Positions 5,691-53,104 are shown, counted from the stretch's first letter. The stretch: DNA of 64,000 nt from a virus (IMGVR_UViG_3300002835_000041:54982-118981); one strand, 5' to 3'. A program made the numbers and translations. Notes: generated from the letters alone by a model not told the origin.

Positions 5691-5917
5691 TCTTCTCTTC
5701 TCCAGTGTATGTATGACTTTATATATACAAGTCCATACGCTACTGCACTAACAATAAATCCATACTGCTTAGTTACTAGACCATAAACAGTCCATAATGT
5801 TTCATTAAATAATAAAACAAACCAGCCCCAAATTGTTTTTCTTCCAACAAAATAAATTCCAGACACGCCGATAATAGCAAGCACCCAGTGGGCATAGTCG
5901 TTAATCCATTGTTCCAT
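5687..5917 (-). CDS. PnuC-like small membrane protein
   Basis: Three hydrophobic helices, RKTIWGW, LWxxYG pattern. Confidence 0.65.
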   Translation of the reverse strand: MEQWINDYAHWVLAIIGVSGIYFVGRKTIWGWFVLLFNETLWTVYGLVTKQYGFIVSAVAYGLVYIKSYIHWRREE

Positions 5918-5956
5918 ATATACAGTATACCCTAAAGTAATAGTTTAGTCAAATCT

Positions 5957-27177: not shown

Positions 27178-28146
27178 CTAAAGCCAAGGGCCAACTATAT
27201 GATCGTGTTGGTCACTTAGTGAAATTTCAGATTCTTTTTGAAATTTTTCGTATAGTTCATATGAACCTATTCCGTAGACACCCAGAGATGTATCCCCAGA
27301 TAATATTTTTGCAGCCCTAAAGTAGGAATCTTTATTCATATCTCCCCACTCGGAGTGATCTTGCCAATGAAGAACCCTTTTGTCGCTATCATAGTTTTCA
27401 TTATAAGCATGCCACATATAGTGAAACGATGGATTAATTAGTTTAACTCCCCTGGTGTAAAACCTCAAGGCCAGAGTTGGCTCTTCGCCAATAAAATACA
27501 GTTCTTTATCGTACGGTATTTCTTTTATAATCTTTGACTCACAAAACAAAGAGTTAGCACATAAAAAATATGCTTCATATCCATATTTAAAATAATCGCA
27601 CTCGTACCAAAATGGCTGAGGCATGGTGTCTTCATCTTTCCACCCCATAGCCCCTCTCATTGGCACTTTTTCAAAATCGTAGAACTCTTCTATTCCAGTT
27701 TCGTGATCTCTTCTAAATCCTTCTGGGTGCATAGTAAACGCAATCTCAGATTGCCAGTAATCTTTACAGGCGACATAGTTTTCTGTTACTACTTTATCCC
27801 AATCATCAATAAATCTAGAATGGGAGTCTATCTGTAAAAAATAATCAGTATGTATATCCCTAGAGACAATCTCCCTAGCCCAGCATGCGCCTCTACTTTC
27901 AGAAAAATGGTATTTCACATATCTGATTTGAGACTCTGGTATAAAAGACAAATCAGGATGTTCAGATTCATCGGCTTGAGAAACAATTGAAAAAAATAGT
28001 CTATCTCTATACTTTGCATTATAGTATGCGCTAGTTACTGTATTTACAAGATCAGGATCTCTATAACTTGCAATTGAAATAAAAATTGTTTTTGATTTTG
28101 ATGGAACAAAGCGACTAGCAATTAAAGGTACGTTAATCAATTCCAA
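27178..28146 (-). CDS. GT60/Gnt1-like polypeptide (hydroxyproline) GlcNAc-transferase
   Basis: TIFISIASYRDP, SRGACWAR, FLQIDSHSRF..DWD, EE..L.LR.YT.G. Confidence 0.85.
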   Translation of the reverse strand: MELINVPLIASRFVPSKSKTIFISIASYRDPDLVNTVTSAYYNAKYRDRLFFSIVSQADESEHPDLSFIPESQIRYVKYHFSESRGACWAREIVSRDIHTDYFLQIDSHSRFIDDWDKVVTENYVACKDYWQSEIAFTMHPEGFRRDHETGIEEFYDFEKVPMRGAMGWKDEDTMPQPFWYECDYFKYGYEAYFLCANSLFCESKIIKEIPYDKELYFIGEEPTLALRFYTRGVKLINPSFHYMWHAYNENYDSDKRVLHWQDHSEWGDMNKDSYFRAAKILSGDTSLGVYGIGSYELYEKFQKESEISLSDQHDHIVGPWL

Positions 28147-28907
28147 TCAACCACTTCGTCATAGGTAACGCTATACTCTCCTGTGAATATTTCTGCATAA
28201 GATATGATGTCTTTATTGTACCTTGTAAGGGTGTTTTTACCGACTTTGTCACATAGATACTTTGTACCATTAGTTAGTACCTCAAAAGCCATCTCTTGCC
28301 CTTGTAAGGCGTTATTGAGGGTATCTATGTACCTTGCCTTACCATAACGCTTTGATGTAAAAGATTGATCAACATAATCAAACCTTGCTTGTGCATCATT
28401 TCTTTTTGCAATGTCCGAATTGTCTATTATGTACTTTGTTGCAGGATGTTCCATCCGTGTTGACCAGTTTCGCATGTTATCGCTGTATCTCTCCATGTTC
28501 TTGAGAGTTGAATCAGCGAAAGCCATGCGTATAAGGTCTTGTTCGGATAGGTCAGCCTCTATTGCGAACGAAATCAAAAAAGCGGTTGCGAAAGGAAACT
28601 TGTCGCTATATGTCGAAACGCCGAAGTGAACATTCGGATTAAATGACTCGACTGACATATTGTCTTCTAATAGTCGCATATGATTTCCGAGAGATACATA
28701 CTCTTGTCGATTCATATCGCAGTCGACGAACAAGCATTCTTCTGGATTGATCCCGTCGGCGAGACATAAAATATTTTTGTCGTACGAACCCACTATTTTC
28801 GAACCGTTAAAACGCTCTAGTAATTTTGCGGACATAAAACCATCCATGTCGGGGGATATAATTAAATTCCTAGAATACTCCAGTGTATCCAGTATGTCTG
28901 TTTTCAT
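28137..28907 (-). CDS. possible DHH-like phosphoesterase
   Basis: ISPDMDGFMSA (DxDG), LFVDCD, GNH; canonical DHH not seen. Confidence 0.45.
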   Translation of the reverse strand: MKTDILDTLEYSRNLIISPDMDGFMSAKLLERFNGSKIVGSYDKNILCLADGINPEECLFVDCDMNRQEYVSLGNHMRLLEDNMSVESFNPNVHFGVSTYSDKFPFATAFLISFAIEADLSEQDLIRMAFADSTLKNMERYSDNMRNWSTRMEHPATKYIIDNSDIAKRNDAQARFDYVDQSFTSKRYGKARYIDTLNNALQGQEMAFEVLTNGTKYLCDKVGKNTLTRYNKDIISYAEIFTGEYSVTYDEVVDWN

Positions 28908-28939
28908 TTTTTAAATATACCCCTTATAATAATTTTATT

Positions 28940-29191
28940 ATGACAGTACAAGACTGGGCTTCTCTTATAGTAGCCATACTTACAATTGTATCATCAATCG
29001 CCTTCGCAATCAAGTGGATGGTAAAACATTATCTCAGCGAACTTAAGCCCAATTCTGGATCATCGATAAAAGATCAAGTTTCAAGATTAGAGAATCGTCT
29101 AAACGAAGCAGACAAAACACGTAAAGATATGGATCGCAAATTAGATCACATGTATGATATTCTTATTGAGTATATTGCAAAATCTAAGTAA
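28940..29191 (+). CDS. single-TM membrane protein with coiled-coil tail (holin-like)
   Basis: N-terminal TM helix, ELKPNSGSS, heptad tail; start at MTVQDW. Confidence 0.6.
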   Translation: MTVQDWASLIVAILTIVSSIAFAIKWMVKHYLSELKPNSGSSIKDQVSRLENRLNEADKTRKDMDRKLDHMYDILIEYIAKSK

Positions 29192-29464
29192 CTATATATA
29201 CTATATATAAGATATCTTTTAAAACTATAAAGATAGTTCTTTTTTCTTATATATTTAAAGTATACACTATCCCTAATCTGGCTAAAATAGACTTATGGTA
29301 ACAAATCGGACATTGTCTATTATAACAATTGTATAACAATTATAAAACCTTTACTTTAATGTCCATTTTGTCTATTATGGTATAATTTATTACTGGCTAA
29401 TACCTTGGTTTGTCCTATACCCACCAATCAAGGTATTAGTCTTTTTTATGGTATAATCATTATT

Positions 29465-29845
29465 ATGGCTACACATGGACCAGAAGTATTTGGAGCAGAC
29501 CCTGCTCGTATAAAATGGCAAATAGTTAGGGGAGACACCTCTCCGCTTCGTGTGGAATTTTTGCAAGATGATGAAGCAACATATTTTGATACATCTGATT
29601 GGACCTTTGAGGCTACTTCTTATGATCCTCAGTCTGATGCTCTTGATTCCCTGGAAGTTTCACGTGGAACAGGATATGTAGATATAATGGCTCCATCTTC
29701 AGTTACAGCACTATGGGGAACTGGCTACAAAGCAATAGTAACAGAATTAACTTTTGATCTACAAGTTACAATTGACTCAGATACAGTTTGGACTCCTTTG
29801 ATTGGAACTATTTCAGTCATTGGTGATGTTACAGGTAGTTTGTAA
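29465..29845 (+). CDS. BppU-N/Ig-like minor virion protein
   Basis: W.IVRGDT motif; paralogue of 40420-40836. Confidence 0.55.
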   Translation: MATHGPEVFGADPARIKWQIVRGDTSPLRVEFLQDDEATYFDTSDWTFEATSYDPQSDALDSLEVSRGTGYVDIMAPSSVTALWGTGYKAIVTELTFDLQVTIDSDTVWTPLIGTISVIGDVTGSL

Positions 29846-29931
29846 TGGCAGTAGTTAAAGTTTCAACTCCAAGGCCAGAGTTGCCTCCAGTAATTAGAAT
29901 TAAAAATAAAACATTTAAAGTAAATAAATAA
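29845..29931 (+). CDS. 28-aa peptide
   Basis: TAATG overlap; MAVVKVSTPRPELPPVIRIKNKTFKVNK. Confidence 0.55.
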   Translation: MAVVKVSTPRPELPPVIRIKNKTFKVNK

Positions 29932-29949
29932 TCATGAGATAATGTCTTT

Positions 29950-30681
29950 ATGGCTGCTTCTAAATCAATGGACTTTCCTAGTGCAAAAAAATCTAGTTAT
30001 GCTGCACAAGTAGAACAAAGCCAAACATCTAACTATCAAGAAAATACATTGTCTTTTCTTCCAGTTCCTGGACCACAAGGACCGCAAGGACCAGCAGGTA
30101 AAGATGGAAAAGATGGCTTGCCTGGCCCAGCAGGTCCAGAAGGACAAAGGGGACCAAAAGGAGAAAAAGGACAATCTGGACAAAACGGACTAAGTTCTTT
30201 ATCGTCTTCAGGACAGCAGGCTGGTTGGGCATCTTACACAAACAGCATTAATAAACCAATAAAACTTGGAATATCCCAGGGTGACGATGGATGGGTTACA
30301 TTGTTGCTAGATACAAAAGATAAAACTCAAAATGAAGTCTACATTCCAAAAGGATGTACTAGTCTTTGGAACAGTCATCAGAGAGCCCTAAACTTCCACG
30401 GCATCAAAGAAGGATCCCAAGTGTTCGTAACATATAACTTTGAACTAACCACATATACTTCTAATACTGAGGTTTGGCTAAGGACATATTTTGCAAGCAA
30501 GGGGCAAGAGTTTGTTAACTTTGTTGGTTCCCTTAAATATCAAAACACATACAACCTTTCAGTTACTCAAAATATATTTATTGAGAATCAGTCTATGTGG
30601 GGCAATGGGGCAGTTCCTCAAATACGAACAGACTTTGATGCATCGGTAATACTCAATTCTGTATATGTCAGCGTGGTATAA
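29950..30681 (+). CDS. collagen-like (Gly-X-Y) virion protein
   Basis: GPQGPQGPAGKDGKDGLPGPAGPEGQRGPKGEKG. Confidence 0.85.
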   Translation: MAASKSMDFPSAKKSSYAAQVEQSQTSNYQENTLSFLPVPGPQGPQGPAGKDGKDGLPGPAGPEGQRGPKGEKGQSGQNGLSSLSSSGQQAGWASYTNSINKPIKLGISQGDDGWVTLLLDTKDKTQNEVYIPKGCTSLWNSHQRALNFHGIKEGSQVFVTYNFELTTYTSNTEVWLRTYFASKGQEFVNFVGSLKYQNTYNLSVTQNIFIENQSMWGNGAVPQIRTDFDASVILNSVYVSVV

Positions 30682-30688
30682 TAAAACC

Positions 30689-31471
30689 ATGGCATTTCCA
30701 GCGACCTATGACTTTAATTACTATAAGGGTGATACCTTTGAGTTTCGTATCTACCCAAAAAAGAACGATGGAACAGCACACCTTTTAAGTGCTTTTAATG
30801 TGCCAACAAACTTTGCCAACAACCCAGACTATGTTTTAGACACATCAGCGCCATACGATAGCGCACAGTTTTCAATTGCCTCAGCCCGTGGTGCAACTCA
30901 AATTATAAATGGAGTTTCTACACCAGTAGTTCCAATTAGATGCTTTGCTAGAATATCCGACGACGGAACATTTGTTCAGTGTGCAATTAGACCATCCGAC
31001 TCAGTTGCCCTAAACGCTGGAACAGAATATGTTTATGATGTTGAAGTAAGAGCAGCAGAAGGAAATTACGACAATCCATTTTATGAAAAAGTATACACTC
31101 TAATGACAGGTAAAATAACAGTAACAGATCAGATTACTGGAGCAAGAGAAAATACTAGTGCCACTTTGTCAAACTATAATATTAGAGGAGTTACTAAGCC
31201 AGTTAAGGGAGCAACCCCAGTAACATCTGTTTTTGAAACAGCAGAACATTCAGGAACTGTTGCTTGGTTTGAGTCAGATGCAACTACACCACTGGTTGGA
31301 AACTTTGTTGCTTCCACTTCTTATGTTGCAAAGATTACGCTAACTGTAAAACCTCCATACTATATTACTGGAACCCCAGCAAACAGATTTACAGTAGAGC
31401 ATGCAACAGTTGTTACAAACGCAATTAACTCAGGAATAGTTACTGCAGTATTCCCTGCAACAGGGGCTTAG
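30689..31471 (+). CDS. BppU-N-like plus Ig-like minor virion protein
   Basis: YYKGDTFEF, YVYDVEV; C-terminal P..G.TP Ig-like repeat. Confidence 0.6.
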   Translation: MAFPATYDFNYYKGDTFEFRIYPKKNDGTAHLLSAFNVPTNFANNPDYVLDTSAPYDSAQFSIASARGATQIINGVSTPVVPIRCFARISDDGTFVQCAIRPSDSVALNAGTEYVYDVEVRAAEGNYDNPFYEKVYTLMTGKITVTDQITGARENTSATLSNYNIRGVTKPVKGATPVTSVFETAEHSGTVAWFESDATTPLVGNFVASTSYVAKITLTVKPPYYITGTPANRFTVEHATVVTNAINSGIVTAVFPATGA

Positions 31472-31473
31472 TC

Positions 31474-32070
31474 GTGGCAGATATACTTTTATCTAATGAT
31501 GACCTAACAGTTTTTGGTGGACCAGAAACAATTAGCCTTGATTTAGATTTTGGACCAACTGGTGATCGTGGAAGTATCATTATTGGAGTCCAGGGAGATC
31601 CAAGGCAAAAGTTTGTTAATGATTCAATTTCTCAAGACATCCAGGCATTAGATATTGCAATAGACTATAGCCCATCTTCTCCAACATACAAAACAGTATT
31701 TCAAAGAATCTCAGGTCCTACTGAAACACAATGGATTCCTCTAGTTAGTTTAAAGTCAAACTTTTATTCAGAAACCAAAGGGCCCTTAACACCAGTAGGT
31801 GGCAAAATAACTATTGCACCCATAAACCTTGCAGACATTTATGATCTATCAGAAGGAACAGTCACTTCTTCAAGATTTAGCGTACAGTACTCTATATCTT
31901 CACCAGAAAGTGCTGGACCTCTAGCAACAAACCTAATTATAAAAGAACTAAACACTACTCAAGGATTTATCGCTTTGCCACTTGAAATAGAAGGAATAGA
32001 ATATCTAGATGGAGAATGGGTACCTATGGCTGGCCCAAAGTATGTTCATCTTTTTATTACGGTGGTATAA
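31474..32070 (+). CDS. hypothetical virion protein
   Basis: GTG start; GPTGDRGS. Confidence 0.7.
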   Translation: MADILLSNDDLTVFGGPETISLDLDFGPTGDRGSIIIGVQGDPRQKFVNDSISQDIQALDIAIDYSPSSPTYKTVFQRISGPTETQWIPLVSLKSNFYSETKGPLTPVGGKITIAPINLADIYDLSEGTVTSSRFSVQYSISSPESAGPLATNLIIKELNTTQGFIALPLEIEGIEYLDGEWVPMAGPKYVHLFITVV

Positions 32071-32089
32071 TGAAAAAGGGTGATCTATA

Positions 32090-34753
32090 ATGGCAGCAGA
32101 GAATATTGATGGTACTATCAATGGTACTGGCCTGTTCCCTGCAAAAATACCTGGTCTTTCAGATGCAGCCGATATTCAGGCAGCGCTAAGACTTTATCAC
32201 TACGGATCATATACCTATGACGGTGCTAACACAAATGAAGCAACCTTGCTTGCAAACCCATCTGTTGCAGCACATCTACAAACTCTTAAAAATGCTGATG
32301 CAGCAGAAGTAACAAACAGAAATGCTGCAATTGCTGTAGAAACAACAAATAGAAATACTGCAATTACAACACACAATGCAGCAACAACAAATGTTCACGG
32401 AATAGCAAATACAGCAAACCTTGCAACACAGCAATTTGTAGCAACTGCAGTTACAACTGCAATAAGCGGTGCTACTGGAGGATATCCTGCTCTTGCAGGA
32501 GATGCTATTGATTGGAACTCTGTTGACGCAAGATTTGATGTTGTTCCACAACTTGCAAATGTTGGAACAGTTATAACAAAAACAGAAAACTTTATCTTAT
32601 CACCCGATGATGTTGGAAAGACTGCTATTTTGTATTCTTCTAACCCAATAGTTGTGACTCTTCCAGCAAACGCTTTAGTAGAAATTCCAGTGGGATATTC
32701 AATTGATATAATTCAAACAGGCACTGGTTCAGTAACTGTATCTGAAGGCAGTGACGCTGTTTCAATTAATAGCAAGGCTGGAATAAAATCTCTAGATGGA
32801 CAATATTCAAAAGGTACTCTGGTTAAAATAGACACCAATACATGGTTTTTTTTTGGAAACTTACTTAACGTAGTAGTTCCAACACCTGTTCCAACACCTG
32901 TAGCACCAGTTCCAGTTCCAACACCTGCAGTAGTTCCTGTTGCACCAACACCAATAGTTTCTCCAGTTGCCCCTGTTGTTCAGCCAACTGCTCCAACACC
33001 AATAGTTTCTCCAGTTGTTCAACCTACAACTCCAGTTGCTCAAACACCTACTCTTGCAACCCCATCACTTTCTGTAAGTATGGGACCAGACGGATTTAAT
33101 GGTGCAGTTTATGCAAATGTTACAGTAACAAATCATAGTAATGATAATACATACACATCAAATCTTGGAACACAAAACCCTGAGTTCCCAGAAGAATTTA
33201 ATATTTCTGGATTAACTAGTGGTCAATCTTACACAGTTTATATAACTGCATCTCGTTCTGGATATACAAGTGCTCAAGGATCTATAACCTTTACCGCAAA
33301 TGCAGTGGCTCCAACACCTGTAGCAACTCCAACAAGTCCAGTTGCTCCTGTTCCTGCAGTTGCTCCTGTTACTCCAACTGCTCAACCTAACTACTATGTT
33401 TTCACATATTATGACGGAAAATGTAACTACATAGTGTATGATTTCCTTGATAATGAAATAGGAACATACTCAACAAATCTTTGTACAAATTCTGGAACAG
33501 ATGCTTCTGGGGCAACTCTTCCAAGTTGTAGTAATTCAGGTTGTGTTTCTACTACACCAGTTGCTCCTGTACCAGCACCAACACCAGCACCAACTCCTAC
33601 GGTAATTGTTGCACCAGGAACAGTTTATTTATCATATTGTGATCCTCAAGGTGGGCCACAAGTTGAATCATATGCAATTAATGCAGACAACATTCTTTCT
33701 ACAAATATTAATACTGCATGTGCAACATACTATGATGTCTTAAGTTACGCAGGAGCAACAAATATTCAGTGCTCTACTGCTTCATCGCCTGGAGCCCCAT
33801 CATGTGGAACCGCCCCAGCACCGACACCAGTTGCTGCTCCAGTTGCTCCTGTAGCACCAGTTCCAGTACCAGTTGCGCCTACACCAGTTCCAGCAGTACA
33901 GACTTCTACAATTTATCACGCAGTATGCTTTAGTGATGGCGGTACAAGCAATGACTCAAGCACAGTTCCAAATATGCTTTATTCCGATTGTACAACTTAC
34001 CGAGCATTTGTACTAAGTATTGATCCAGGAGCATCTATAAATTGTTCTGCTTCAGGGCCAGTTTCTTTACCAGGATGTGTTGCACCTACACCAGCACCAA
34101 CACCTGTAGTACCTGTAGCGCCAGTTCCAGCACCAGTTGCTCCTGTAGCGCCAGTTCCAGCACCAACAGCACTAACATGTCCAAACAATGACACCTATGG
34201 AGTTACAAGTGGAGGAGTCTACAGTGGTTCTTGCCCTGATGGTTCATGTCCAGGATGTAGCAATTACCAAGAGAAGTGGTACAAGTGCTCTGATGGAAGT
34301 TCAGGAACTAAGTTCTATGTAGGTCTTGGATGTAGCACACCTGTAGCACCTGCACCTGTTGCACCTGCACCTGTTGCACCTGCACCTGTTGCACCTAGCC
34401 CTGCTCCTACTGCAGCACTAGACTGTACAGCGTGTACTGGATATAGCGGACTTGCAGGAACAGAAGTACAAGACTGTTCTGATGGATGCGGAACTAGAAC
34501 ATTGTGTAGAACGCCTCTAGGATGTGCCAACTACTACTTAAATGAATGTCCAGGTTGTGCTGCTCCTACACCAGTTGCTCCTACACCTGCTGCTGCGACA
34601 CCTACAGCGTCTTCACCAACAGCATGCGTTGCAAACTGCGTATTTGATGGTTATACCTGTAATGGATGGGCAGCAACATATACTTATATTAACTATGGAT
34701 GTGGAGGAGCAAGTGCTTGCCCTCCTTATACCGATAATTTTGGTTGTGCATAA
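32090..34753 (+). CDS. Pro/Ala/Val/Thr-rich, Cys-rich fibre protein (887 aa)
   Basis: N-terminal fibre anchor shared with 45678; many PVAP/PAPTP linkers; FN3-like and Cys-rich modules. Confidence 0.85.
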   Translation: MAAENIDGTINGTGLFPAKIPGLSDAADIQAALRLYHYGSYTYDGANTNEATLLANPSVAAHLQTLKNADAAEVTNRNAAIAVETTNRNTAITTHNAATTNVHGIANTANLATQQFVATAVTTAISGATGGYPALAGDAIDWNSVDARFDVVPQLANVGTVITKTENFILSPDDVGKTAILYSSNPIVVTLPANALVEIPVGYSIDIIQTGTGSVTVSEGSDAVSINSKAGIKSLDGQYSKGTLVKIDTNTWFFFGNLLNVVVPTPVPTPVAPVPVPTPAVVPVAPTPIVSPVAPVVQPTAPTPIVSPVVQPTTPVAQTPTLATPSLSVSMGPDGFNGAVYANVTVTNHSNDNTYTSNLGTQNPEFPEEFNISGLTSGQSYTVYITASRSGYTSAQGSITFTANAVAPTPVATPTSPVAPVPAVAPVTPTAQPNYYVFTYYDGKCNYIVYDFLDNEIGTYSTNLCTNSGTDASGATLPSCSNSGCVSTTPVAPVPAPTPAPTPTVIVAPGTVYLSYCDPQGGPQVESYAINADNILSTNINTACATYYDVLSYAGATNIQCSTASSPGAPSCGTAPAPTPVAAPVAPVAPVPVPVAPTPVPAVQTSTIYHAVCFSDGGTSNDSSTVPNMLYSDCTTYRAFVLSIDPGASINCSASGPVSLPGCVAPTPAPTPVVPVAPVPAPVAPVAPVPAPTALTCPNNDTYGVTSGGVYSGSCPDGSCPGCSNYQEKWYKCSDGSSGTKFYVGLGCSTPVAPAPVAPAPVAPAPVAPSPAPTAALDCTACTGYSGLAGTEVQDCSDGCGTRTLCRTPLGCANYYLNECPGCAAPTPVAPTPAAATPTASSPTACVANCVFDGYTCNGWAATYTYINYGCGGASACPPYTDNFGCA
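34340..34396 (+). repeat. 15-nt tandem repeat encoding PVAPA
   Basis: CCTGT(A/T)GCACCTGCA x ~4. Confidence 0.85.
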
Positions 34754-34790
34754 AAATGCAATATGATATACTATATTAAAAGGAGAAAAA

Positions 34791-35168
34791 ATGCAATTTA
34801 AATTAAATGCTGAAGACGAAGTCATTGATTTTATTTATATAGAGACAGACACTGAGACAGGTTTGCCAGTAAGAGATACAGATGTTTTGGTATTTAATTC
34901 ACTATCTTCTAGTCCATCTGTTGTAGAAATAACTGATTTAGAATATAATCCAGAGCAGGGCTCTATTTGGAACGGTAAAGATTTTATAGATCCAGAAAAT
35001 AGAGAACCAAGACCTCTTGCTAAAAAAGATGATGGTTTTAGAAAGTTTGCATTTATTGTAGACAACGAATATAAGTTTTTCTATGGTGTTGCAGATACAC
35101 CAGAAAACGGAATGAAGATTGCAATTCTTTCTAGCAATCCACAAGTTACAATTGGAGAGGAAATATAA
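34791..35168 (+). CDS. hypothetical protein
   Basis: AGGAG SD; A(I/L)LSS.P motif. Confidence 0.75.
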   Translation: MQFKLNAEDEVIDFIYIETDTETGLPVRDTDVLVFNSLSSSPSVVEITDLEYNPEQGSIWNGKDFIDPENREPRPLAKKDDGFRKFAFIVDNEYKFFYGVADTPENGMKIAILSSNPQVTIGEEI

Positions 35169-35407
35169 TGGAAGAGAATCTATCGCCACTGCAAAAATAC
35201 AAGCAGATGCTTGGAGATACAAGACCTTGGGATGTTGTAAATCCAAATACTGAGTGGGCAGATGAAGAAGTAGCAAAAGAAAGATTTTCCATCTGTAAAG
35301 GATGTCCAGAATTAATTAAACTAACTAGTCAATGTAAAAAGTGTGGCTGCCTTATGAAAGTAAAAACAAAATTAGAAAAAGCGGTTTGCCCACTAGGAAA
35401 GTGGTAA
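35168..35407 (+). CDS. small Cys-rich metal-binding protein
   Basis: R..IC..CP...CKKCGC.M..K....A.CP.GKW. Confidence 0.8.
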   Translation: MEENLSPLQKYKQMLGDTRPWDVVNPNTEWADEEVAKERFSICKGCPELIKLTSQCKKCGCLMKVKTKLEKAVCPLGKW

Positions 35408-35408
35408 A

Positions 35409-35999
35409 ATGAAACCAGCATACCTGTTAAAGACAGTTTTTCCACCAGAAGAGCATTTGGCTTTACAAAATCTTGCAATGAATCTTTGGTCAACAGACAA
35501 AAGCACGTATGATAGAGGTTTTGGAAGACATCAATGGACAATTTGGGATAATACTCACGGTCCTGCAATTGAGCCATTAAGAAGATTTCACGAAATGCTT
35601 TTACCATTAGCAAGAGAAGAGTTTGAATCAGAAACTCTTGTGCCATCTTGGTGCCTATTAAGTATTTATGAGGGAAAAGAAGCAAAATTATGGAAGCATG
35701 TAGATGATAACGCTTGCACATACCATATAAACTATACAATTTTTCATAAAACACCTTGGGACTTTTATGTAGAAGGTGAAAAATTTCAGGCAGAAGAAAA
35801 TGATGCAGTTATTTCTTATGGTAATGATCAGTTACATTGGAGGGAAGAATTTCCAGATCCAGAACACAATCTAGTTGCTAATGCATTCTTTTTTTATACA
35901 GAGCCAGATCATTGGTTCTTTAAGCATGGTCCACAATATCTATATACTGATATTCGTAAACCAGTTGAAGGCAAAGAAACAATAAAAGAAACTATGTAA
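35409..35999 (+). CDS. 2OG-Fe(II) oxygenase
   Basis: LWKHVDDNAC (HxD), HWRE (distal H and R). Confidence 0.8.
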   Translation: MKPAYLLKTVFPPEEHLALQNLAMNLWSTDKSTYDRGFGRHQWTIWDNTHGPAIEPLRRFHEMLLPLAREEFESETLVPSWCLLSIYEGKEAKLWKHVDDNACTYHINYTIFHKTPWDFYVEGEKFQAEENDAVISYGNDQLHWREEFPDPEHNLVANAFFFYTEPDHWFFKHGPQYLYTDIRKPVEGKETIKETM

Positions 36000-37031
36000 A
36001 TGAATAAATTATTCTTTCAGTTATATAATCCTACAGGTTTAATAAATCAGGTAATGAGCCTTGAGTTGGCAGCAGGGTTATCTCATGAACTAAATGTTCC
36101 AGTCATTATGCACTATGGAAGATATACAGCAGACCCAAAACTTTATTTTACTGATACAATTCCAATTTTTAGTCCAAGCAGGTTTTATAATGAACAAAGA
36201 AAAGGTTTTACAAACGATAACCAATTTCCTCACTTGCTAGACCTTATGGATTTTGATCAAAACATAATTATAATTGATGAAAAAATAGATCACTTTGAAC
36301 AAGAAGAACTAGTTATTGATGATATTATGAATAATTTTTATTATAGTAATCAACCAGAAATAACTGGAGATGAGTTTCTTTTTGCAGAAGGAAGAAAAAG
36401 ACTTCCACTAGATAAAACACTTCATTTAAAATTGACTCTCGGCTGGTACTCAAGATTTTTTTATAAAAGAAGTGATAGCCTAAACAAAGCAATATCTTCA
36501 GTCAGATTTAAAAAAGAGTATGTAGATTTAGCAAACAAAATATATCACTCTATCGGAGAATTTCAAGGAATGCACTTAAGATTATCGGATCACATAAAGA
36601 TGTTTGAAACAAAACAAGAAATGTTTGAGTCATGGCTAGATAAATTTGCACAGAATAATCTTCCTGTAGTTTTATCAACTTGTGAGCCAGGACATAAAAT
36701 GGTACAAGATAATAAGCATAGGTTTATACTGTTAGATGAATATATTGTGCATAATTTTAGAGATGAATTTATGGCTTTGCCATTTCAGGATGAAGTAGTT
36801 TTTGGACTTATATGTAACTTGGTAATGCATAATGCTACAAACTTTGTTGGAACATCTGGAAGCACATATACTGCCTATATTCATAGAAATAGAAATCAAA
36901 AAGGAATTGAGACTTGGGACTTTTTTGACAACCCACCAAAGACAACATCAACTCGTTACTCTTGGAATGGATCTTCTTTAGAGAATGGCAGAAAAATGTG
37001 GTGGAGAGAATGGCCAGAATCAAAATGTTAA
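36000..37031 (+). CDS. GDP-fucose protein O-fucosyltransferase-like (POFUT fold)
   Basis: GLINQ, GMHLRLSD, FVGTSGSTYT..I.R.R. Confidence 0.75.
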   Translation: MNKLFFQLYNPTGLINQVMSLELAAGLSHELNVPVIMHYGRYTADPKLYFTDTIPIFSPSRFYNEQRKGFTNDNQFPHLLDLMDFDQNIIIIDEKIDHFEQEELVIDDIMNNFYYSNQPEITGDEFLFAEGRKRLPLDKTLHLKLTLGWYSRFFYKRSDSLNKAISSVRFKKEYVDLANKIYHSIGEFQGMHLRLSDHIKMFETKQEMFESWLDKFAQNNLPVVLSTCEPGHKMVQDNKHRFILLDEYIVHNFRDEFMALPFQDEVVFGLICNLVMHNATNFVGTSGSTYTAYIHRNRNQKGIETWDFFDNPPKTTSTRYSWNGSSLENGRKMWWREWPESKC

Positions 37032-37101
37032 AAAGAATTTTTTATAAGTTTAAAATGTGGCGTAAGTATAAAAAAATAAAAAAGGGTAAGTTTATTTACT
37101 A

Positions 37102-38040
37102 ATGCTTTTTGATATGTTTAATCCTAGAGTTATTCCTCATATGGGTATTGATAAAACACAACCAAAAAAGGATTATTCTCATACTACTGAAATATTGGCA
37201 GGGCATTCAGAAGTACCAAGACCAGAATACAATTATAAATGGAATAGCGATAACCTAAGATCCATAGAGTTTGCGACAAAGCCACCAATAGTAGCCCTAG
37301 GTTGCTCTATAACGCTTGGCCAAGGACTTCCAGAACATCTTAGGTGGACCGACCTTCTATCTAATCGTATTGGGGTCCCTATAGGAAATATATCTTATTC
37401 TGGAGCATCTGCAAACAAGTTGGTTTCTAGTTTTTTAGGAATGATTCATCAATATCAATATAAGCCAGAGATTGTTATTGCTCATTTTGCAAACTTTGAA
37501 AGATTTTATTTTGTTAGCCCAGACGGGGAAAGAATGCAGGAGTGGTTTATTAATCATAGTGCAAAAAAAACAAAAGCATCAGCACCTTGGAACTATGAAG
37601 AGATTTTGCCATATGAGTGGGTTTATTATCAAAATCTAGATCATATTAAAATGCTAGAAGCATTCTGTGAGGCAAGCGGAATTAAACTGTACTGGTCTTC
37701 TTGGTCACACGGAATGACAGATGAACAAGAACAATTCTTAAAAGACAACTTTAGGCATTATGTTTCAGACACAACAAAGAAAGAGTTTCCAGCAGACTTT
37801 GAACTTGGTTTTGTTGCAAACAGTGTGCCTGAACTTACCAAGCATTTTGAGATGATAAATTGGCAAGGGTGCCATCATGGATGGAAAGACATGTACCCAG
37901 AAATATTTGACTATGGCTATGACTACCACAAAATTGCATATGACTATGGAAGACTAAAGGGGCCTGGAGCGCACTGGCCACACCCTGGGCTACATAAGCA
38001 GTTGCATATTTCTGAGTTTTGGGAAAAACTAATATCCTAA
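37102..38040 (+). CDS. SGNH/GDSL-hydrolase-like protein
   Basis: ALGCSITLG, NISYSGAS, HPGLH. Confidence 0.6.
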   Translation: MLFDMFNPRVIPHMGIDKTQPKKDYSHTTEILAGHSEVPRPEYNYKWNSDNLRSIEFATKPPIVALGCSITLGQGLPEHLRWTDLLSNRIGVPIGNISYSGASANKLVSSFLGMIHQYQYKPEIVIAHFANFERFYFVSPDGERMQEWFINHSAKKTKASAPWNYEEILPYEWVYYQNLDHIKMLEAFCEASGIKLYWSSWSHGMTDEQEQFLKDNFRHYVSDTTKKEFPADFELGFVANSVPELTKHFEMINWQGCHHGWKDMYPEIFDYGYDYHKIAYDYGRLKGPGAHWPHPGLHKQLHISEFWEKLIS

Positions 38041-38090
38041 ATATTTTAAAATAGGGATATATACTTTAAGTGAGAGAATTGTGAGATAGT

Positions 38091-39122
38091 ATGAAAACAG
38101 CATTAGTCCTTGGAGCAGGTGGCTTTATCGGTAGCCACATGGTTAATAGACTTAAGTCAGAAGGATACTGGGTTAGAGGTGTTGATCTAAAGCATCCTGA
38201 TTTTTCTAACACACAGGCAGACGAGTTCATTGAAAGAGATCTGTCCGTTTATGAAAATGTTGAAAAGGCAATTCAGTTTAAAGGATATCAAGGAAACTTT
38301 TATAGCGAAATACCATATAAGTTAATTACTAGTTTTGATGAGATTTATCAATTTGCTGCAGATATGGGTGGCGCTGGATATATATTTACTGGAGAACACG
38401 ATTCCCAGATTATGGAAAACTCTGCACTTATAAACCTTAACTTGCTTAGGGCACAATCAAGACTAAACGCAAAATATGATATTAATAAAACCAAAATATT
38501 TTATTCAAGTTCTGCCTGTATGTATCCTGACTATAAGCAGTTGGATGTTAATAATCCTGGATTAAAAGAGTCTGACGCATACCCTGCCGATCCTGACAGC
38601 GAGTATGGCTGGGAAAAATTGTTTAGTGAAAGAATGTTCTTAGCCTTTAATAAAAACAACAGAATTCCCGTAGCGATTGCCAGATATCACAACATCTATG
38701 GACCAGAAGGAACTTGGGATGGTGGAAAAGAAAAGGCTCCTGCAGCAATGTGTCGAAAAGTTATACAGTCAGATGGCTTTATAGAAATTTGGGGGGATGG
38801 AGAACAAACCCGTTCATTCCTATATATAGATGAATGCATAGAAGCAACAAGAAGACTTATGAAATCAGACTTTACTGGTCCTGTTAATATTGGATCTGAA
38901 GAAATGGTTACTATCAACCAGTTGGTAGATATTGCTTGCAGTATTGAGGGCAAGGTTTTGAGCAAGATGCATATCCCTGGACCTTTGGGAGTTAGAGGAA
39001 GAAATTCTAATAATGACTTGGTAAGAGAAAAACTAGGCTGGGATTACTCAATGTCTCTTAAAGACGGAATTGAAAAAACCTACAACTGGATACTTCAGGA
39101 AACAAAAAAGAACCCCTCCTAA
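38091..39122 (+). CDS. GDP-mannose 3,5-epimerase-like NAD-dependent epimerase
   Basis: GAGGFIG, AADMGGAGYI, SSACMYP, YGWEKLFSE, GKEKAPAAMCRK, WGDGEQTRSF. Confidence 0.9.
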   Translation: MKTALVLGAGGFIGSHMVNRLKSEGYWVRGVDLKHPDFSNTQADEFIERDLSVYENVEKAIQFKGYQGNFYSEIPYKLITSFDEIYQFAADMGGAGYIFTGEHDSQIMENSALINLNLLRAQSRLNAKYDINKTKIFYSSSACMYPDYKQLDVNNPGLKESDAYPADPDSEYGWEKLFSERMFLAFNKNNRIPVAIARYHNIYGPEGTWDGGKEKAPAAMCRKVIQSDGFIEIWGDGEQTRSFLYIDECIEATRRLMKSDFTGPVNIGSEEMVTINQLVDIACSIEGKVLSKMHIPGPLGVRGRNSNNDLVREKLGWDYSMSLKDGIEKTYNWILQETKKNPS

Positions 39123-39129
39123 GAGGGGT
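39112..39129. terminator. hairpin between convergent genes
   Basis: ACCCCTC-CTAA-GAGGGGT. Confidence 0.6.
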
Positions 39130-39143
39130 CCTAATTTGAGATA

Positions 39144-41093: not shown

Positions 41094-41540
41094 ATGGCTA
41101 AAATATCAATTCCAGCAGTTAAGGGCCTATTCCAAACAGGAGATAGACCTACTCAAGAAAATTATGTAGATTTAATCGACACCCTGTCTTCTCAGTCAAC
41201 AGACTTGGGTTCATCAGGAAATAATGAAAATACAATCAACGGAATTGAGAACGTAACTGTTATTGATAACTTTGATGCTACAGTTTGGCGTATGGTGAAG
41301 TATATTATTTCAATATCAAAGACTTCAGCAGGTGACAACAAGTTCTACGCAACTGAAATGACAATTCTTGTTGACGGTACAAATGTATCAGTCAGCGAGT
41401 ATGGAACAATCGACAATGATGGGAATATTGGCACCATTAATGTCTCTCGCACTGGAAATACCGTGGCTATTACAGTCACTCCAGACCCTGCGATCAAGCC
41501 AGTCACTGTGCGATTTGCTCGTATGGGACTTAAGGCATAA
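41094..41540 (+). CDS. minor virion protein
   Basis: FQTGDRPT..NY.DLIDT; C-terminus resembles that of 41559 (SEYG). Confidence 0.7.
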   Translation: MAKISIPAVKGLFQTGDRPTQENYVDLIDTLSSQSTDLGSSGNNENTINGIENVTVIDNFDATVWRMVKYIISISKTSAGDNKFYATEMTILVDGTNVSVSEYGTIDNDGNIGTINVSRTGNTVAITVTPDPAIKPVTVRFARMGLKA

Positions 41541-47510: not shown

Positions 47511-49289
47511 ATGGCAGTTAATAAGAATATAGGTGGAAGATCACAGGCAGCAAATGACTTCTTGGCACCACTTGCACCAATAGATGTTGTTCTAACAGAT
47601 GTTGGAACAAACAGACCATATAATAATGGTGCCGTATCAGTTGCATTTGCACTGCCAGCAAACTCTCCTCAAGCAACATCATACACAGTAACACTCAGTA
47701 GCGGACAAAGCAATACTGGGTCTTCTTCTCCTATAACCGTTACAGGAATTAATTCGTCAGCATCAGTTACTGCAACAGTAACCGCAACAAATGAAATTGG
47801 AACATCTCCATCATCTTCTGTATCTTCAGCAGTAACAGTAACTACAGTTCCAGCAACACCAGGAGCACCATCAGCATCATCTTCTTCAGCAGGAACAGAC
47901 TATGTTTCATGGACAGCACCAGATAATGGTGGAAAAGCAATTACTAACTATCGTTGGACATCTGATGATGGCAAAGCAGGAGATACTTCTTCAACTGCAG
48001 TGAATGTTGGTCAAGAGCAAGGATCGGCACAGACATACAATGTTTATGCCACTAATGCCAATGGAAACTCAGGAACATCTTCTGCATCAGGATCTGTTAC
48101 TACAGCATTTTCTTTCGCACCATTTGGTGCTTTTGGTTTCGTACCAGCACCTACACCAACGCCAGTTGTAAACTGTAATCAGTGTCTTAGTTATGAACCA
48201 TCCGATGGTTCTTATGGATTAACACAAAGTAATGGATCATGTACTTCAGGTACAATAACTTACAGAATGTGTCGTACTCCAGGTGGCTGTCCAGATGTAC
48301 CTCAGTTTGGTCCTTGCGTTCCACCAGCACCAACACCAGCACCTACACCAGTTCCAACACCAGCACTTGACTGTGTAACATGCGTAGGCGGTACATATAA
48401 TCAAGATTGTCCAAGTGGACAAGTAGGAACAATAACTTATTGCAGAACTGCAGCAGCATGTCCTGACTATATACAAAGCAATACTTGTGCAGCAGCACCT
48501 ACACCAGCACCTGTACTAAACTGTACAAGTTGTGTTTACGGTGAAACAGAACCTGCTTGTCCATCTGGCCAAGTTGGTTACCGTCGTCGCTGTATTACAG
48601 CATCAGGATGCCCTGATTATGACATTGTTAACACATGTACAACACCATTCGGAGCCTTCGGTGCTTTCGGAGCCTTTGGAGCCTTCGGAGCCTTTGGAGC
48701 CTTCGGAGCCTTCGGTGCTTTCGGAGCCTTCGGTGCTTTCGGAGCCTTCGGTGCTTTCGGAGCATTCGGTGCTTTCGGAGCATTCGGTGCCTATACTTTC
48801 GGTAAGTCTGTAAGCGTACACACATTAGTGTTAACCACAAATGGATACGTTGAAGCAGGAAATCTTCAAGTAGGAGATGTCCTAGTTTCTACAGAAATTC
48901 CTGGTCTAGGAATGAACTTTACAAAGGAAGATGTTAAAAACTGGTCAGGAAACCCAGCAGATCTTGCTATGGTTCCTGACAAGGAAACAACAATTATGCA
49001 TATAGGAACAACTACAGCAGAAGACTCTGTATCTATCAATGGTGAATTTTATTCAGGATCTCACTATATGCTAGTAAAAAGAGATGGAGTTTCAAAGATG
49101 ATTGCATCTATTGATCTTCTAGATACAGATGAGTTGTGGTCTACAGATACAAATACTTGGACTGCAATAACTGAGTTGACTATCTCACATATTCCTCATC
49201 AGGTAGTTTCTATAAACTGTGAGCCTTATGACTTGTTCTATACAGATCACTTCTTGGTTTACGATGGATACCAAACAGCAGAAAACTAA
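47511..49289 (+). CDS. fibre/surface protein: FN3-like domains, 3x six-Cys modules, (FGA)16, C-terminal Hint domain
   Basis: DNGGKAITNY FN3; SVSVHTLVLTTNGYVEAGNLQVGD Hint block; VVSINCEPYDLFYTDHFLVYD. Confidence 0.85.
   Translation: MAVNKNIGGRSQAANDFLAPLAPIDVVLTDVGTNRPYNNGAVSVAFALPANSPQATSYTVTLSSGQSNTGSSSPITVTGINSSASVTATVTATNEIGTSPSSSVSSAVTVTTVPATPGAPSASSSSAGTDYVSWTAPDNGGKAITNYRWTSDDGKAGDTSSTAVNVGQEQGSAQTYNVYATNANGNSGTSSASGSVTTAFSFAPFGAFGFVPAPTPTPVVNCNQCLSYEPSDGSYGLTQSNGSCTSGTITYRMCRTPGGCPDVPQFGPCVPPAPTPAPTPVPTPALDCVTCVGGTYNQDCPSGQVGTITYCRTAAACPDYIQSNTCAAAPTPAPVLNCTSCVYGETEPACPSGQVGYRRRCITASGCPDYDIVNTCTTPFGAFGAFGAFGAFGAFGAFGAFGAFGAFGAFGAFGAFGAFGAFGAFGAYTFGKSVSVHTLVLTTNGYVEAGNLQVGDVLVSTEIPGLGMNFTKEDVKNWSGNPADLAMVPDKETTIMHIGTTTAEDSVSINGEFYSGSHYMLVKRDGVSKMIASIDLLDTDELWSTDTNTWTAITELTISHIPHQVVSINCEPYDLFYTDHFLVYDGYQTAEN
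48648..48791 (+). repeat. 9-nt tandem repeat, 16 units, encoding Phe-Gly-Ala
   Basis: TT(C/T)GG(A/T)GC(C/T/A) x16; variation only at third codon positions. Confidence 0.95.
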
Positions 49290-51070: not shown

Positions 51071-53104
51071 ATGTCAGATTTTTTTAGTTTTAAACTTCCA
51101 GAGGACTTCGTAGAAAAGTACAAGAGCCAAGAAAGCCCATTTGGGTTTAAGGATGCAGCAGAAAATTCACTTGGAGAAATTACTTTTATTCGTACATATT
51201 CTCGTATGAAGGAAGATGGAACTAAGGAAAGATGGCATGAGGTTTGCCGTCGTGTAATCGAGGGTATGTATTCAGTACAGAAGAATCATGCTAAAGAAAA
51301 CCGTTTGCCATGGAATGACTATAAGGCTCAGAAGTCTGCACAAGAAGCATTCCAAAGAATGTTTGAATTAAAGTGGACACCACCAGGTCGAGGTATGTGG
51401 GCATTTGGAACTCCTATGACTATGGAGAAGAAAAATTCTGCAGCACTACAAAACTGTGCAATGGTTTCAACAAAGGATCTTGACAAGAATGATCCAGGAG
51501 CACTATTTGCTTGGGTGATGGATGCACTGATGCTTGGCATTGGTGTAGGTTTTGATACAGTGGGACAGGATAAGAATTTCTCAATCTATACCCCAACAGA
51601 ACCAGAACAGGTGTTCGAAATTCCAGACACTCGTGAAGGTTGGGTAGAGTCTGTAAGACTTCTAATCAACTCCTATCTCAGAGCCAACCAGAGTATTCAA
51701 AAATTTAACTATGACTTAATCAGACCACTTGGAGCACCCATCAAGGGCTTTGGAGGCGTTGCATCAGGACCTGCACCTCTTATCAAGTTGCATGACCAGA
51801 TAGACCGTGTAATCGGCTCCAGAGGCGGAGAAACACTAGATTCTCGTGCCATTGTAGACCTTGTAAACCTCATTGGTACTTGCGTTGTATCAGGCAATGT
51901 TCGTAGGTCAGCAACACTTGCTTTAGGAAATGAAGGGGATGAAACATTCATGAATCTAAAAAATTCAGAACTATTCCCAGAGCGCAACTCATTTGATCCA
52001 GAGAATCCAGGTTGGGCTTGGATGTCTAACAATTCTATTTCAGCAGAAGTAGGAACAAAGTACGAAGACTATGTAGATTTAATTACAGAAAACGGAGAAC
52101 CAGGCTTTATCTGGCTTGATGTTGCTCGTAATTATGGACGACTAAAGGATGCGCCAGACGGTAAGGATTATCGTGTGATGGGATTTAACCCATGTGCGGA
52201 GCAGCCATTAGAATCATACGAACTATGTACACTTGTAGAAGTGCACTTAAATCGTCATGAATCTAAGGAGGACTTCCTGCGTACCCTGAAGTTTGCATAC
52301 CTATATGGAAAGACTGTAACACTTGTTCCAACACACTGGCCACAAACAAACGGTATTATGCAACGCAACCGTCGCATTGGTACATCACTAACAGGTATTG
52401 CATCTTTTGCAGATCAAAAGGGTTTGCCAATTGTTCGTGAGTGGATGGATGAAGGATACAACAAGATTCGTCACTATGATCATCAGTATTCGGAATGGCT
52501 ATGTGTTCGTGAATCAATTCGTGTAACAACAGTTAAGCCATCAGGATCTGTTTCAATTCTTTCTGGTGCAACTCCTGGAGTCCACTGGGGACCTGGAGGA
52601 AACTTCTTCCTTCGTGCAGTTCGATTTGGAAACACAGACCCAATGATGCACTTGTTCAAAGCAGCGGGGTACACAATTGAAGACGATGTAGTGTCATCAA
52701 ATACATCAGTAGTTTACTTCCCAATTAAGTCAGGTCATCCACGATCTGAAAAAGATGTTACATTATTTGAAAAGATTGCACTTGCTGCCACTGCTCAGAA
52801 GTATTGGTCTGACAATGGTGTTTCTGTAACACTGTCATTTGATAAGGAAACAGAGTCAAAGCATGTTGTTCCAGCACTTCATATGTACGAGGGACAACTA
52901 AAGGCAGTTTCATTCCTTCCAATGGGAAATACTGTTTATCCTCAGCAGCCATATACTCAGATCACGGAAGAAGAGTATGAGTCCTATATCGGCAAGTTGA
53001 AGCACATTGATTTTTCTGCCATCTATGATGGAGCAGAAAATCTTGAGGCTCAAGGTGAAATGTACTGCACAACAGATTACTGTGAAATTAAAATAAACAA
53101 GTAG
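51071..53104 (+). CDS. nrdJ: class II (adenosylcobalamin-dependent) ribonucleotide reductase
   Basis: TPPGRG, LQNCA, GNVRRSA, NPCAEQPL, ELCTLVE, TTVKPSGSVS, C-terminal CxxxxC. Confidence 0.95.
   Translation: MSDFFSFKLPEDFVEKYKSQESPFGFKDAAENSLGEITFIRTYSRMKEDGTKERWHEVCRRVIEGMYSVQKNHAKENRLPWNDYKAQKSAQEAFQRMFELKWTPPGRGMWAFGTPMTMEKKNSAALQNCAMVSTKDLDKNDPGALFAWVMDALMLGIGVGFDTVGQDKNFSIYTPTEPEQVFEIPDTREGWVESVRLLINSYLRANQSIQKFNYDLIRPLGAPIKGFGGVASGPAPLIKLHDQIDRVIGSRGGETLDSRAIVDLVNLIGTCVVSGNVRRSATLALGNEGDETFMNLKNSELFPERNSFDPENPGWAWMSNNSISAEVGTKYEDYVDLITENGEPGFIWLDVARNYGRLKDAPDGKDYRVMGFNPCAEQPLESYELCTLVEVHLNRHESKEDFLRTLKFAYLYGKTVTLVPTHWPQTNGIMQRNRRIGTSLTGIASFADQKGLPIVREWMDEGYNKIRHYDHQYSEWLCVRESIRVTTVKPSGSVSILSGATPGVHWGPGGNFFLRAVRFGNTDPMMHLFKAAGYTIEDDVVSSNTSVVYFPIKSGHPRSEKDVTLFEKIALAATAQKYWSDNGVSVTLSFDKETESKHVVPALHMYEGQLKAVSFLPMGNTVYPQQPYTQITEEEYESYIGKLKHIDFSAIYDGAENLEAQGEMYCTTDYCEIKINK

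Follow-up and report, generated by a model that had tools for sequence, protein, structure and literature searches.

A candidate exchangeable cassette for hydroxylation and glycosylation of proline-rich fibre linkers in a lineage of freshwater phages

The question raised by this locus is whether a tailed phage hydroxylates and glycosylates the proline-rich linkers of its own fibres. The window analysed, that is, the whole stretch of 64,000 nucleotides, comprises bases 54982-118981 of the IMG/VR virus record IMGVR_UViG_3300002835_000041 (118,981 bp, rated complete), and positions are those of the window unless marked as genome coordinates. For positions 27178 to 39122 a first-pass annotation had proposed a hydroxyproline (Hyp) O-glycosylation pathway acting on extensin-like fibres, in which a prolyl 4-hydroxylase (P4H), a glycosyltransferase (GT) of family GT60 and galactosyl- or fucosyltransferases would follow one another as they do on Skp1. 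The core of that proposal held, since the fibre gene, an oxygenase gene and the glycosylation genes form one conserved unit and the oxygenase follows the Pro-rich linkers; the Skp1-like chain did not. On balance, the region is probably one version of an exchangeable fibre-decoration cassette for the hydroxylation and glycosylation of Pro-rich fibre linkers, as judged from comparison of the sequences.

Cassette genes behind the distal fibre gene

The distal fibre gene and the genes that follow it are given below. Counts refer to 66 related viral contigs that encode the O-fucosyltransferase (O-FucT)-like protein (set 1).

32090-34753, + strand: hypervariable distal fibre protein of 887 amino acids (aa), proposed substrate (PHROG tail-fibre match, E 3.7e-5)
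34791-35168, + strand: small open reading frame (ORF) found in a minority of relatives (8 of 66 loci), no family match
35168-35407, + strand: DUF6171 Cys-rich (CxxC) small Zn-ribbon protein, the near-constant first cassette gene (PF19668, E 1.4e-6; 59 of 66 loci)
35409-35999, + strand: 2-oxoglutarate (2OG)/Fe(II) oxygenase by predicted fold and invariant triad, proposed linker hydroxylase (61 of 66)
36000-37031, + strand: O-FucT-superfamily (POFUT-like) GT-B glycosyltransferase by orthologue and profile matches, predicted user of a GDP-sugar (65 of 66)
37102-38040, + strand: SGNH-fold esterase/acyltransferase-like enzyme by predicted fold, proposed sugar O-acyl tailoring (51 of 66)
38091-39122, + strand: GDP-mannose 3,5-epimerase (GME), maker of GDP-L-galactose and GDP-L-gulose, by similarity to Arabidopsis GME (62 of 66)
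39109-39132, no strand: GC-rich hairpin with T-runs, from a hairpin scan, where the cassette converges on the lysozyme gene

From 29405 to 39122 all genes lie on the same strand with gaps of 0-105 nt, and a scan for hairpins with T-runs found no strong + strand terminator from 29405 until 39109. In the distal fibre protein the N-terminal 253 aa are conserved and are followed by six Pro/Val/Ala/Thr linkers interleaved with small Cys-rich modules. This composition is rare, since by the same measure only 4 of the 172 ORFs of the genome are Pro-rich: this fibre, a second one at 47511 with one long linker, the tape measure and a PA14/PT-repeat protein. The two Pro-rich fibres of the first-pass annotation are thereby borne out.

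The ORF at 35409-35999 had no Pfam match, and searches of the PDB with the single sequences of this ORF and of ORF 36000 returned noise only, as did the A1 profile. Its AlphaFold model (predicted local distance difference test score, pLDDT, 88.9) matched 2OG/Fe(II) oxygenases in Foldseek (E 3e-7) and, in a VIA comparison with 6n1f, gave Z 17.2 and a root-mean-square deviation of 2.1 over 163 residues, with a double-stranded beta-helix. Residues H97, D99 and H143 (the HxD...H triad) are invariant in the family. The identity assigned in the first-pass annotation thus stands; its placement directly after the Pro-rich fibre operon needs a small correction, the small ORFs 34791 and 35168 coming between the fibre gene and the oxygenase gene. 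The nearest viral relatives are uncharacterised cyanophage proteins, so that the family reaches into cyanophages. Both phrog_2954, which matches this ORF at E 1.8e-12, and a cyanophage relative in BFVD are labelled 'ferrochelatase'. Since the predicted fold is that of a 2OG oxygenase, this label looks like a propagated misannotation.

The POFUT-like transferase at 36000 was borne out through its relatives, its own PF10250 score being below threshold. Nine of 21 orthologues match PF10250 at E <= 0.01 (best 1.4e-5), and the top PDB match of the family profile is human POFUT2 (E 0.02), aligned over HLRxxD and GTSGST. The segments H192-L-R-L-S-D197 and G284-TSGST are invariant and align with GVHLRRKD and GTSVSTFS of POFUT2, its GDP-fucose-binding motifs. 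The peptide PTPVAPVPVPTP, in its Pro or Hyp form, is proposed as model acceptor for this enzyme. No match to the O-FucT-like protein was found among phages by tblastn, and in 185,579 prokaryote genomes the family occurred on one contig, itself a fragment of this phage lineage. That 8-kb contig (L151, JBIPLL010000680.1) lies in a Beijerinckiaceae metagenome-assembled genome (MAG), carries the genes for GME, O-FucT, SGNH and lysozyme and those of the fibre region in unchanged order, and is probably a mis-binned phage fragment.

The two remaining genes also agree with the first-pass annotation, the SGNH fold being predicted from a weaker model. For ORF 37102 the top Foldseek matches of a model with pLDDT 67 are all SGNH enzymes (best E 8e-6, TM ~0.3-0.58). 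The motif GCSxTxGQG is invariant, with GCS in place of GDS, as are S69, G101, N131 and H294/H298; the classic DxxH is not present. The full-length product of ORF 38091 matches Arabidopsis GME at E 1e-91, against 2e-23 for the next family of short-chain dehydrogenases/reductases (SDR), and contains GAGGFIG, SSAC, YGWEK and GGKEKAPAA, the Cys and Lys of which we take to have their roles in GME. An NCBIfam scan of the cassette genes gave nothing beyond generic SDR matches for GME. No membrane-like segment was found in the seven cassette enzymes and small proteins, all of which are predicted to be soluble.

An exchangeable slot in related phages

No match to 27-40 kb was found among GenBank phages by megablast. 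The locus was compared in about 145 related viral contigs: the 66 of set 1, and 80 (set 2) fetched by means of the conserved neighbouring gene 41094-41540, independently of the cassette. Anchoring on the same gene gave 52 non-redundant slot architectures, which are the basis of the slot counts below.

In set 1 the gene upstream of the cassette is, in nearly all loci with sufficient upstream sequence, a Pro-rich repeat protein with Cys-rich modules at its end, the repeats being of the types (TP)n, (PAPxPV)n and (TPIIA)n. Many variants carry a canonical PF13640 gene (E 1e-15 to 1e-18) between the DUF6171 and the 35409-type gene, and others a carbamoyltransferase before the epimerase. Judged from gene order, the stretch that separates the lysozyme gene from the hypervariable fibre gene is an exchangeable cassette slot. 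DUF6171 and an oxygenase of the P4H and/or 35409 type are near-constant in it. The remainder varies: O-FucT-like plus GME, as in the window; GT60 directly after the oxygenase (L098, L106, L117, L134, L138), with a P4H-type gene and then GT60 immediately behind the fibre gene in L098, L117, L134 and L138; GT61 with or without a cupin domain (L081, L087, L115); and cupins alone, a nucleotidyltransferase, other SDR epimerases, SGNH, DUF6065 or a radical SAM/SPASM enzyme. The last of these (L137:5326-6330) shares its slot with GT60 and an SDR epimerase, the fibre there being rich in Cys and having poly-Thr linkers. When the window genes and 30 slot genes from relatives were scanned with Pfam, the only GT families detected were GT60, GT61, O-FucT and, weakly, GT2, several slot genes remaining without a family. 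GT60, GT61 and O-FucT each include protein O-glycosyltransferases.

The profile of the slot P4H-type proteins is closest to Bacillus anthracis P4H (E 7e-10) and then to that of the chlorovirus PBCV-1 (3e-5), followed by PKHD hydroxylases, Phytophthora P4H, PHD2 and mimivirus L230. In one relative (L097:7397-8605) a single ORF of 402 aa joins a DUF6171-like N-terminus, 62% identical to the DUF6171 protein of the window, to a GT60 domain (PF11397, E 2.6e-39), which indicates a functional link of the small Zn-ribbon protein to the transferase.

Presence of the oxygenase was then set against linker type. A slot oxygenase occurs in 45 of the 48 slots with Pro-rich linkers and in none of the other four (Fisher p 1.3e-4), although the loci are phylogenetically related and the negatives amount to about two independent lineages. 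The test counts slot genes; phages can carry oxygenases elsewhere, as the phage of the window does. No architecture had an oxygenase without Pro-rich linkers. Among the four negative slots, L137 combines poly-Thr/Ala linkers with GT60, and L085, L104 and L132 have FTP/FSF linkers, with O-FucT and GME beyond the lysozyme gene. In these sequences the transferase appears to stay, and the oxygenase to be absent, where ready-made hydroxyls replace proline; the loss of the oxygenase there amounts to a natural experiment. The co-occurrence with Pro-rich fibres expected in the first-pass annotation is thus seen for the oxygenase.

Four phages with hardly any other protein in common with this genome (L053, L036, L040, L065) also carry the whole unit, placed after their tail genes. 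The unit comprises the Pro-rich protein, DUF6171, the 35409-type gene, O-FucT, tailoring genes and GME, to which all but L036 (35409-type only) add a P4H-type gene. Because the cassette and the Pro-rich protein recur together in unrelated phage backgrounds, decoration of the fibre by hydroxylation and glycosylation is likely.

The GT60 gene of the window lies outside this unit:

27178-28146, - strand: GT60-family (PF11397) GT-A glycosyltransferase, accessory insertion between the genes at 26952 and 28137

The assignment as a GT60/Gnt1-like transferase is confirmed by PF11397 (111 bits, cut-off 21, E 1.2e-31); a single-sequence PDB search returned noise only. The part matched by Pfam contains D107-S-H109, which we take to be the DxH/DxD metal-binding motif of the GT60/GT27 families. 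Among the 66 cassette loci the gene occurs only in a 97%-identical twin (L005), and elsewhere the homologues of 26952 and 28137 abut, so that it appears to be a recent sporadic insertion. It is on the strand opposite to the fibre operon and upstream of it. Among phages, GT60 matches were restricted to four Xanthomonas/Stenotrophomonas jumbo phages. GT60 and an O-FucT-like gene never occur together in one slot, and for this reason they look like alternative occupants of the slot, not successive steps. The chain from P4H through GT60 to a galactosyl- or fucosyltransferase therefore finds no support in this phage, in which the canonical P4H-like genes lie 19-35 kb away as well. ORF 28137 was rejected as a partner of GT60: it is conserved without GT60 and gave no family or Atlas lead. 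A cytochrome P450 gene (25574-26758, + strand; PF00067, E 7.7e-57) neighbours GT60 and among the 66 loci is likewise present only in the twin.

Proposed decoration of the fibre and its alternatives

The scheme set out here, in its substrate, residue, sugars and order of steps, is the one that would fit these genes. In the cytoplasm, late in infection, 2OG/Fe(II) oxygenases would hydroxylate linker residues of the distal fibre 32090-34753, most likely prolines; the enzyme would be the in-slot 35409, possibly helped by five P4H-like paralogues encoded elsewhere in the genome. The epimerase would convert host GDP-mannose into GDP-L-galactose or GDP-L-gulose, and the O-FucT-like transferase would add that L-sugar to the new hydroxyls, or to Thr/Ser. 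L-galactose is 6-hydroxy-L-fucose. The SGNH enzyme may then edit O-acyl groups of the sugar. GT60 at 27178 would be a separately acquired second transferase, placing a sugar of the N-acetylhexosamine type on the same or another fibre.

A wider form of this proposal is held more tentatively. Tailed phages of freshwater bacteria may make Hyp-rich glycoprotein fibres, in which phage-encoded prolyl hydroxylases would turn the linker prolines of the distal fibre into Hyp and exchangeable transferase cassettes would build lineage-specific glycans on it. As cassettes are swapped, the fibre surface would become more diverse, in parallel with the hypervariable fibre gene, and the version in the window would consist of GDP-L-galactose, an O-FucT-like transferase, O-acyl editing and an extra GT60.

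Several observations weigh against hydroxylation and glycosylation of the linkers, besides the relatedness of the loci already given. Three Pro-rich slots have no oxygenase (L088, L097, L126), and the 19-35 kb mentioned above separate the canonical P4H-like genes of this phage from the fibre. In the structural comparison of ORF 35409, PHD-type enzymes (Z ~15) are tied with halogenases/hydroxylases and sugar-tailoring oxygenases (Z 14-16), among which AviO1, EvdO and HygX match at Z ~14, so that specificity for proline is not assignable from the modelled fold alone. ORF 36000 itself scores 14.6 bits against PF10250 (E 0.025), below the cut-off of 31.5. The precedent of PBCV-1 is also discouraging, since no Hyp was found in the virions of this virus despite its active P4H (PMC7019647).

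The sugar-tailoring matches also bear on the main rival, in which the fibre is still the target. The transferases would glycosylate Ser/Thr directly, in mucin-like linkers or in the Cys-rich modules (compare POFUT/EOGT on EGF/TSR), and the oxygenases would tailor the sugar or hydroxylate Asp, Asn or Lys. This agrees with the Ser/Thr content of 18-40% in most linkers, with the single CSNSGC motif of the fibre, with the known action of O-FucT and GT61 relatives on Cys-knot domains, and with the slots next to poly-Thr or FTP linkers, where GT60 or O-FucT persists and the oxygenase is absent. The 35409-type gene moreover accompanies O-FucT in 22 of 24 slots and is present in 8 of the 28 without it. 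Against this, the oxygenase follows Pro-rich linkers rather than transferase type, and the slot P4H-type genes are nearest to peptidyl prolyl hydroxylases. In some relatives (linkers of the PVPIPVPAAP type) the repeat units are nearly free of Ser/Thr, with 5-9% over whole Pro-rich segments, and an O-glycan there would only be possible on hydroxylated Pro. We consider direct Ser/Thr glycosylation unlikely, and it is nonetheless the rival with most in its favour.

Explanations that leave the fibre aside fit the data poorly. Modification of a host surface or secreted glycan, for superinfection exclusion or receptor masking, with the genes near the fibre by chance, has been proposed for other phage glycosyltransferases. 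It would agree with the way in which such enzymes of freshwater actinophages are usually interpreted (PMC10202952) and with the adjoining lysozyme-like gene. It appears improbable, given that all proteins are predicted soluble, with no membrane-anchored transferase, flippase or lipid-carrier enzyme, and that the cassette keeps a fixed position inside the fibre operon, co-varies with linker type and moves along with the Pro-rich protein. Slightly less credit still is given to a recombination hot spot behind the fibre gene that gathers accessory genes without a common substrate. The slot is indeed highly variable, GT60 and P450 are recent insertions, and other islands of the genome gather oxygenases and transferases too; the theme of oxygenase, transferase, nucleotide-sugar and sugar-tailoring genes nevertheless recurs in every one of the 52 architectures, one of which has DUF6171 fused to GT60. 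A last reading, in which the oxygenase and transferase hypermodify phage DNA by TET/JBP-like hydroxylation and base glycosylation, draws on weak Tet_JBP matches of the slot P4H-type proteins, all below threshold (E 0.004-0.008; 16.8 bits at most, the cut-off being 34.9). Phage TET-plus-transferase systems exist. We regard this as very improbable indeed: the best matches are peptidyl prolyl hydroxylases, no methyltransferase partner was seen in the slot, and neither the position within the fibre operon nor the presence of GDP-L-galactose, SGNH and carbamoyl tailoring suits DNA modification.

Other modification genes and known systems

The phage genome has a G+C content of ~38% and encodes a WhiB protein (PF02467, E 2e-11), which points to an actinophage. 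Its capsid protease is ~40% identical to Streptomyces and Rhodococcus phage counterparts, and hundreds of relatives occur in metagenomic viral contigs (at least 596 matched for the lineage), one of them placed in a MAG with a lake-style sample code. From these features together, the phage probably infects low-G+C freshwater Actinobacteria; the lineage is one of very abundant freshwater phages of roughly 105-119 kb. Features of the genome outside the cassette are as follows.

1-266, + strand: 3' part of a P4H-like PF13640 oxygenase gene (E 2e-13; whole gene at genome 54696-55247)
8335-8961, - strand: P4H-like PF13640 oxygenase (E 2.3e-12) with H134-x-D136, distal His and Arg
29405-32070, + strand: proximal fibre operon genes 29405, 29950 (collagen-like), 30665 and 31474, by lineage-wide synteny and, for 29950, PHROG tail-fibre matches
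47511-49289, + strand: second fibre protein with one long Pro-rich linker, Cys modules and an (FGA)n repeat, by sequence composition

Both P4H-like genes, listed at 6 and 8335 in the first-pass annotation, were recovered. An HMM (hidden Markov model) built from relatives gave five such genes in the genome. The first starts 285 nt before the window, with a tandem paralogue just upstream. ORF 8335 contains H134-V-D136, AHEV and VRY, and by itself matches P3H1, B. anthracis P4H and PiuC at E 0.0015-0.009. At 6637-8064 (- strand), a 475-aa fusion joins a luciferase-like monooxygenase (alkanesulfonate monooxygenase-like, E 3e-7) to a C-terminal PF13640 domain with P-I-D-D at the usual HxD position.

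The second fibre protein has ~20 tandem Phe-Gly-Ala repeats downstream of its Cys/Pro modules, and no P4H gene was found near it within the window. In several relatives Phe-Pro-rich repeat proteins lie ~4-5 kb past the 41094 anchor, some (for instance L087) with P4H-like genes just downstream. Stabilisation of collagen is an unlikely role for P4H here: the collagen-like ORF 29950 has one Y-position Pro only, and a 29950-type ORF is kept in at least one relative without a slot oxygenase (L088).

Outside the window, genome 45998-48982 (L071:2499-5483) holds a second hydroxylase/transferase unit, made up of two ORFs without a Pfam match, a divergent GT60-like GT-A enzyme (0.95 in Atlas against PF11397 clusters, and E 0.006 in BLASTP against the GT60 of the window), an overlapping P4H-like oxygenase (26.6 bits to PF13640) and then a NodU/CmcH carbamoyltransferase. 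Sulfotransferase-like genes (PF00685, E 1e-5 and 0.003; PF03567, E 0.0016) and a fusion of adenylylsulfate (APS) kinase and nucleotidyltransferase (PF01583, E 1.5e-15) are jointly covered by 5957-6532 and 9700-10251 (both - strand), genome 38621-39409 and the genome 50392-51153 region set, which suggests a possible phage sulfation system. A slot gene of relative L117 is 30% identical to the genome 38621 protein. In L152 (G003:C1:6000-18000, ~5574-6494), a complete relative of 105.9 kb, a GT60 gene is flanked by the homologues of genome genes 53451 and 53687. It stands a few hundred bases upstream of the site that the two tandem P4H-like genes occupy in the window phage, which suggests another hot spot of modification genes. 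Finally, a B12-dependent (class II) ribonucleotide reductase gene (51071-53104, + strand) lies between the fibre genes and the portal/capsid genes.

Aquatic phages encode a very large number of orphan 2OG/Fe(II) oxygenases whose fold resembles that of prolyl hydroxylases (PMC12774648), and in the literature on freshwater actinophages transferases are taken to serve in DNA protection or surface modification (PMC10202952). Full-text searches of the literature found no description of Hyp glycosylation, or of a P4H/transferase/fibre unit, in phages. The locus gives a concrete candidate substrate for such oxygenases, namely the Pro-rich linkers of the adjacent fibre. The locus contributes a version with an O-FucT-like enzyme and GDP-L-galactose, a fixed slot in which transferases are swapped, the fusion of DUF6171 with GT60 and the loss of the oxygenase with non-Pro-rich linkers. 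If the proposal is true, common orphan oxygenases of aquatic phages would gain a function, Hyp O-glycosylation, hitherto a eukaryotic trait, would extend to bacterial viruses, fibre glycans would be a new variable layer in phage-host recognition and virion stability, and compact soluble enzymes would be available for Hyp- and L-galactose-modified peptides.

The Skp1 pathway of Dictyostelium and Toxoplasma uses the prolyl 4-hydroxylase PhyA, Gnt1 (CAZy GT60) and then PgtA/AgtA or Glt1/Gat1. It resembles the phage locus in its soluble cytoplasmic enzymes, predicted here, in the pairing of a PHD/P4H-type oxygenase with GT60, seen in relatives, and in GDP/UDP donors for further sugars. In contrast to Skp1, which is modified on one proline, the proposed target is a virion fibre linker with many. 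The GT60 of this phage is unlinked to any P4H gene, no Skp1-like target is involved, and O-FucT-like plus GME replaces GT60 instead of extending its product; the extension families GT2/GT74/GT77/GT32/GT8 are not among the family matches of the slot genes scanned, several of which have no family.

With the Hyp-rich glycoproteins of plants and green algae (extensins, arabinogalactan proteins, the Chlamydomonas mastigoneme), which are made by P4H together with HPAT (GT95), GALT (GT31) and SGT1 (GT96), the locus has in common long Pro-rich repeats (PT, PAPxP, PVP) as rod-like linkers, encoded here beside P4H-type oxygenases and transferases, and sugar tailoring, with sulfation genes elsewhere in the phage genome. 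The phage transferases are instead GT60, GT61 and O-FucT-like, the plant families not being among the matches of the slot genes scanned. The phage enzymes would act in the cytoplasm, not in the endoplasmic reticulum or Golgi, and the sugar would probably be L-galactose rather than arabinose or D-galactose.

O-glycosylation of mycobacteriophage virions is already known (Freeman et al. 2023, cited in PMC12582341). The likeness lies in actinophage-encoded glycosyltransferases acting on the phage's own virion proteins, as proposed here. In the present lineage the predicted target is the fibre linkers, and 2OG oxygenases are near-constant. The mycobacteriophage targets, in contrast, are reportedly capsid and tail-tube proteins, with no hydroxylase step.

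Two viruses of eukaryotes offer parallels to the proposed hydroxylation. The P4H of PBCV-1, A085R (PDB 5c5t), is likewise a small virus-encoded enzyme, active in vitro on virus-encoded Pro-rich repeats, and is matched by the slot profile as given above; it differs in having no known link to a transferase cassette, and the virions gave no detectable Hyp (PMC7019647). The collagen lysyl hydroxylase/glycosyltransferase L230 of mimivirus (PDB 6ax6), also among the profile matches, acts through a single fused enzyme on lysine in collagen repeats, in a giant virus of amoebae, and resembles the present locus in that a viral 2OG hydroxylase is coupled to the glycosylation of a viral fibre protein.

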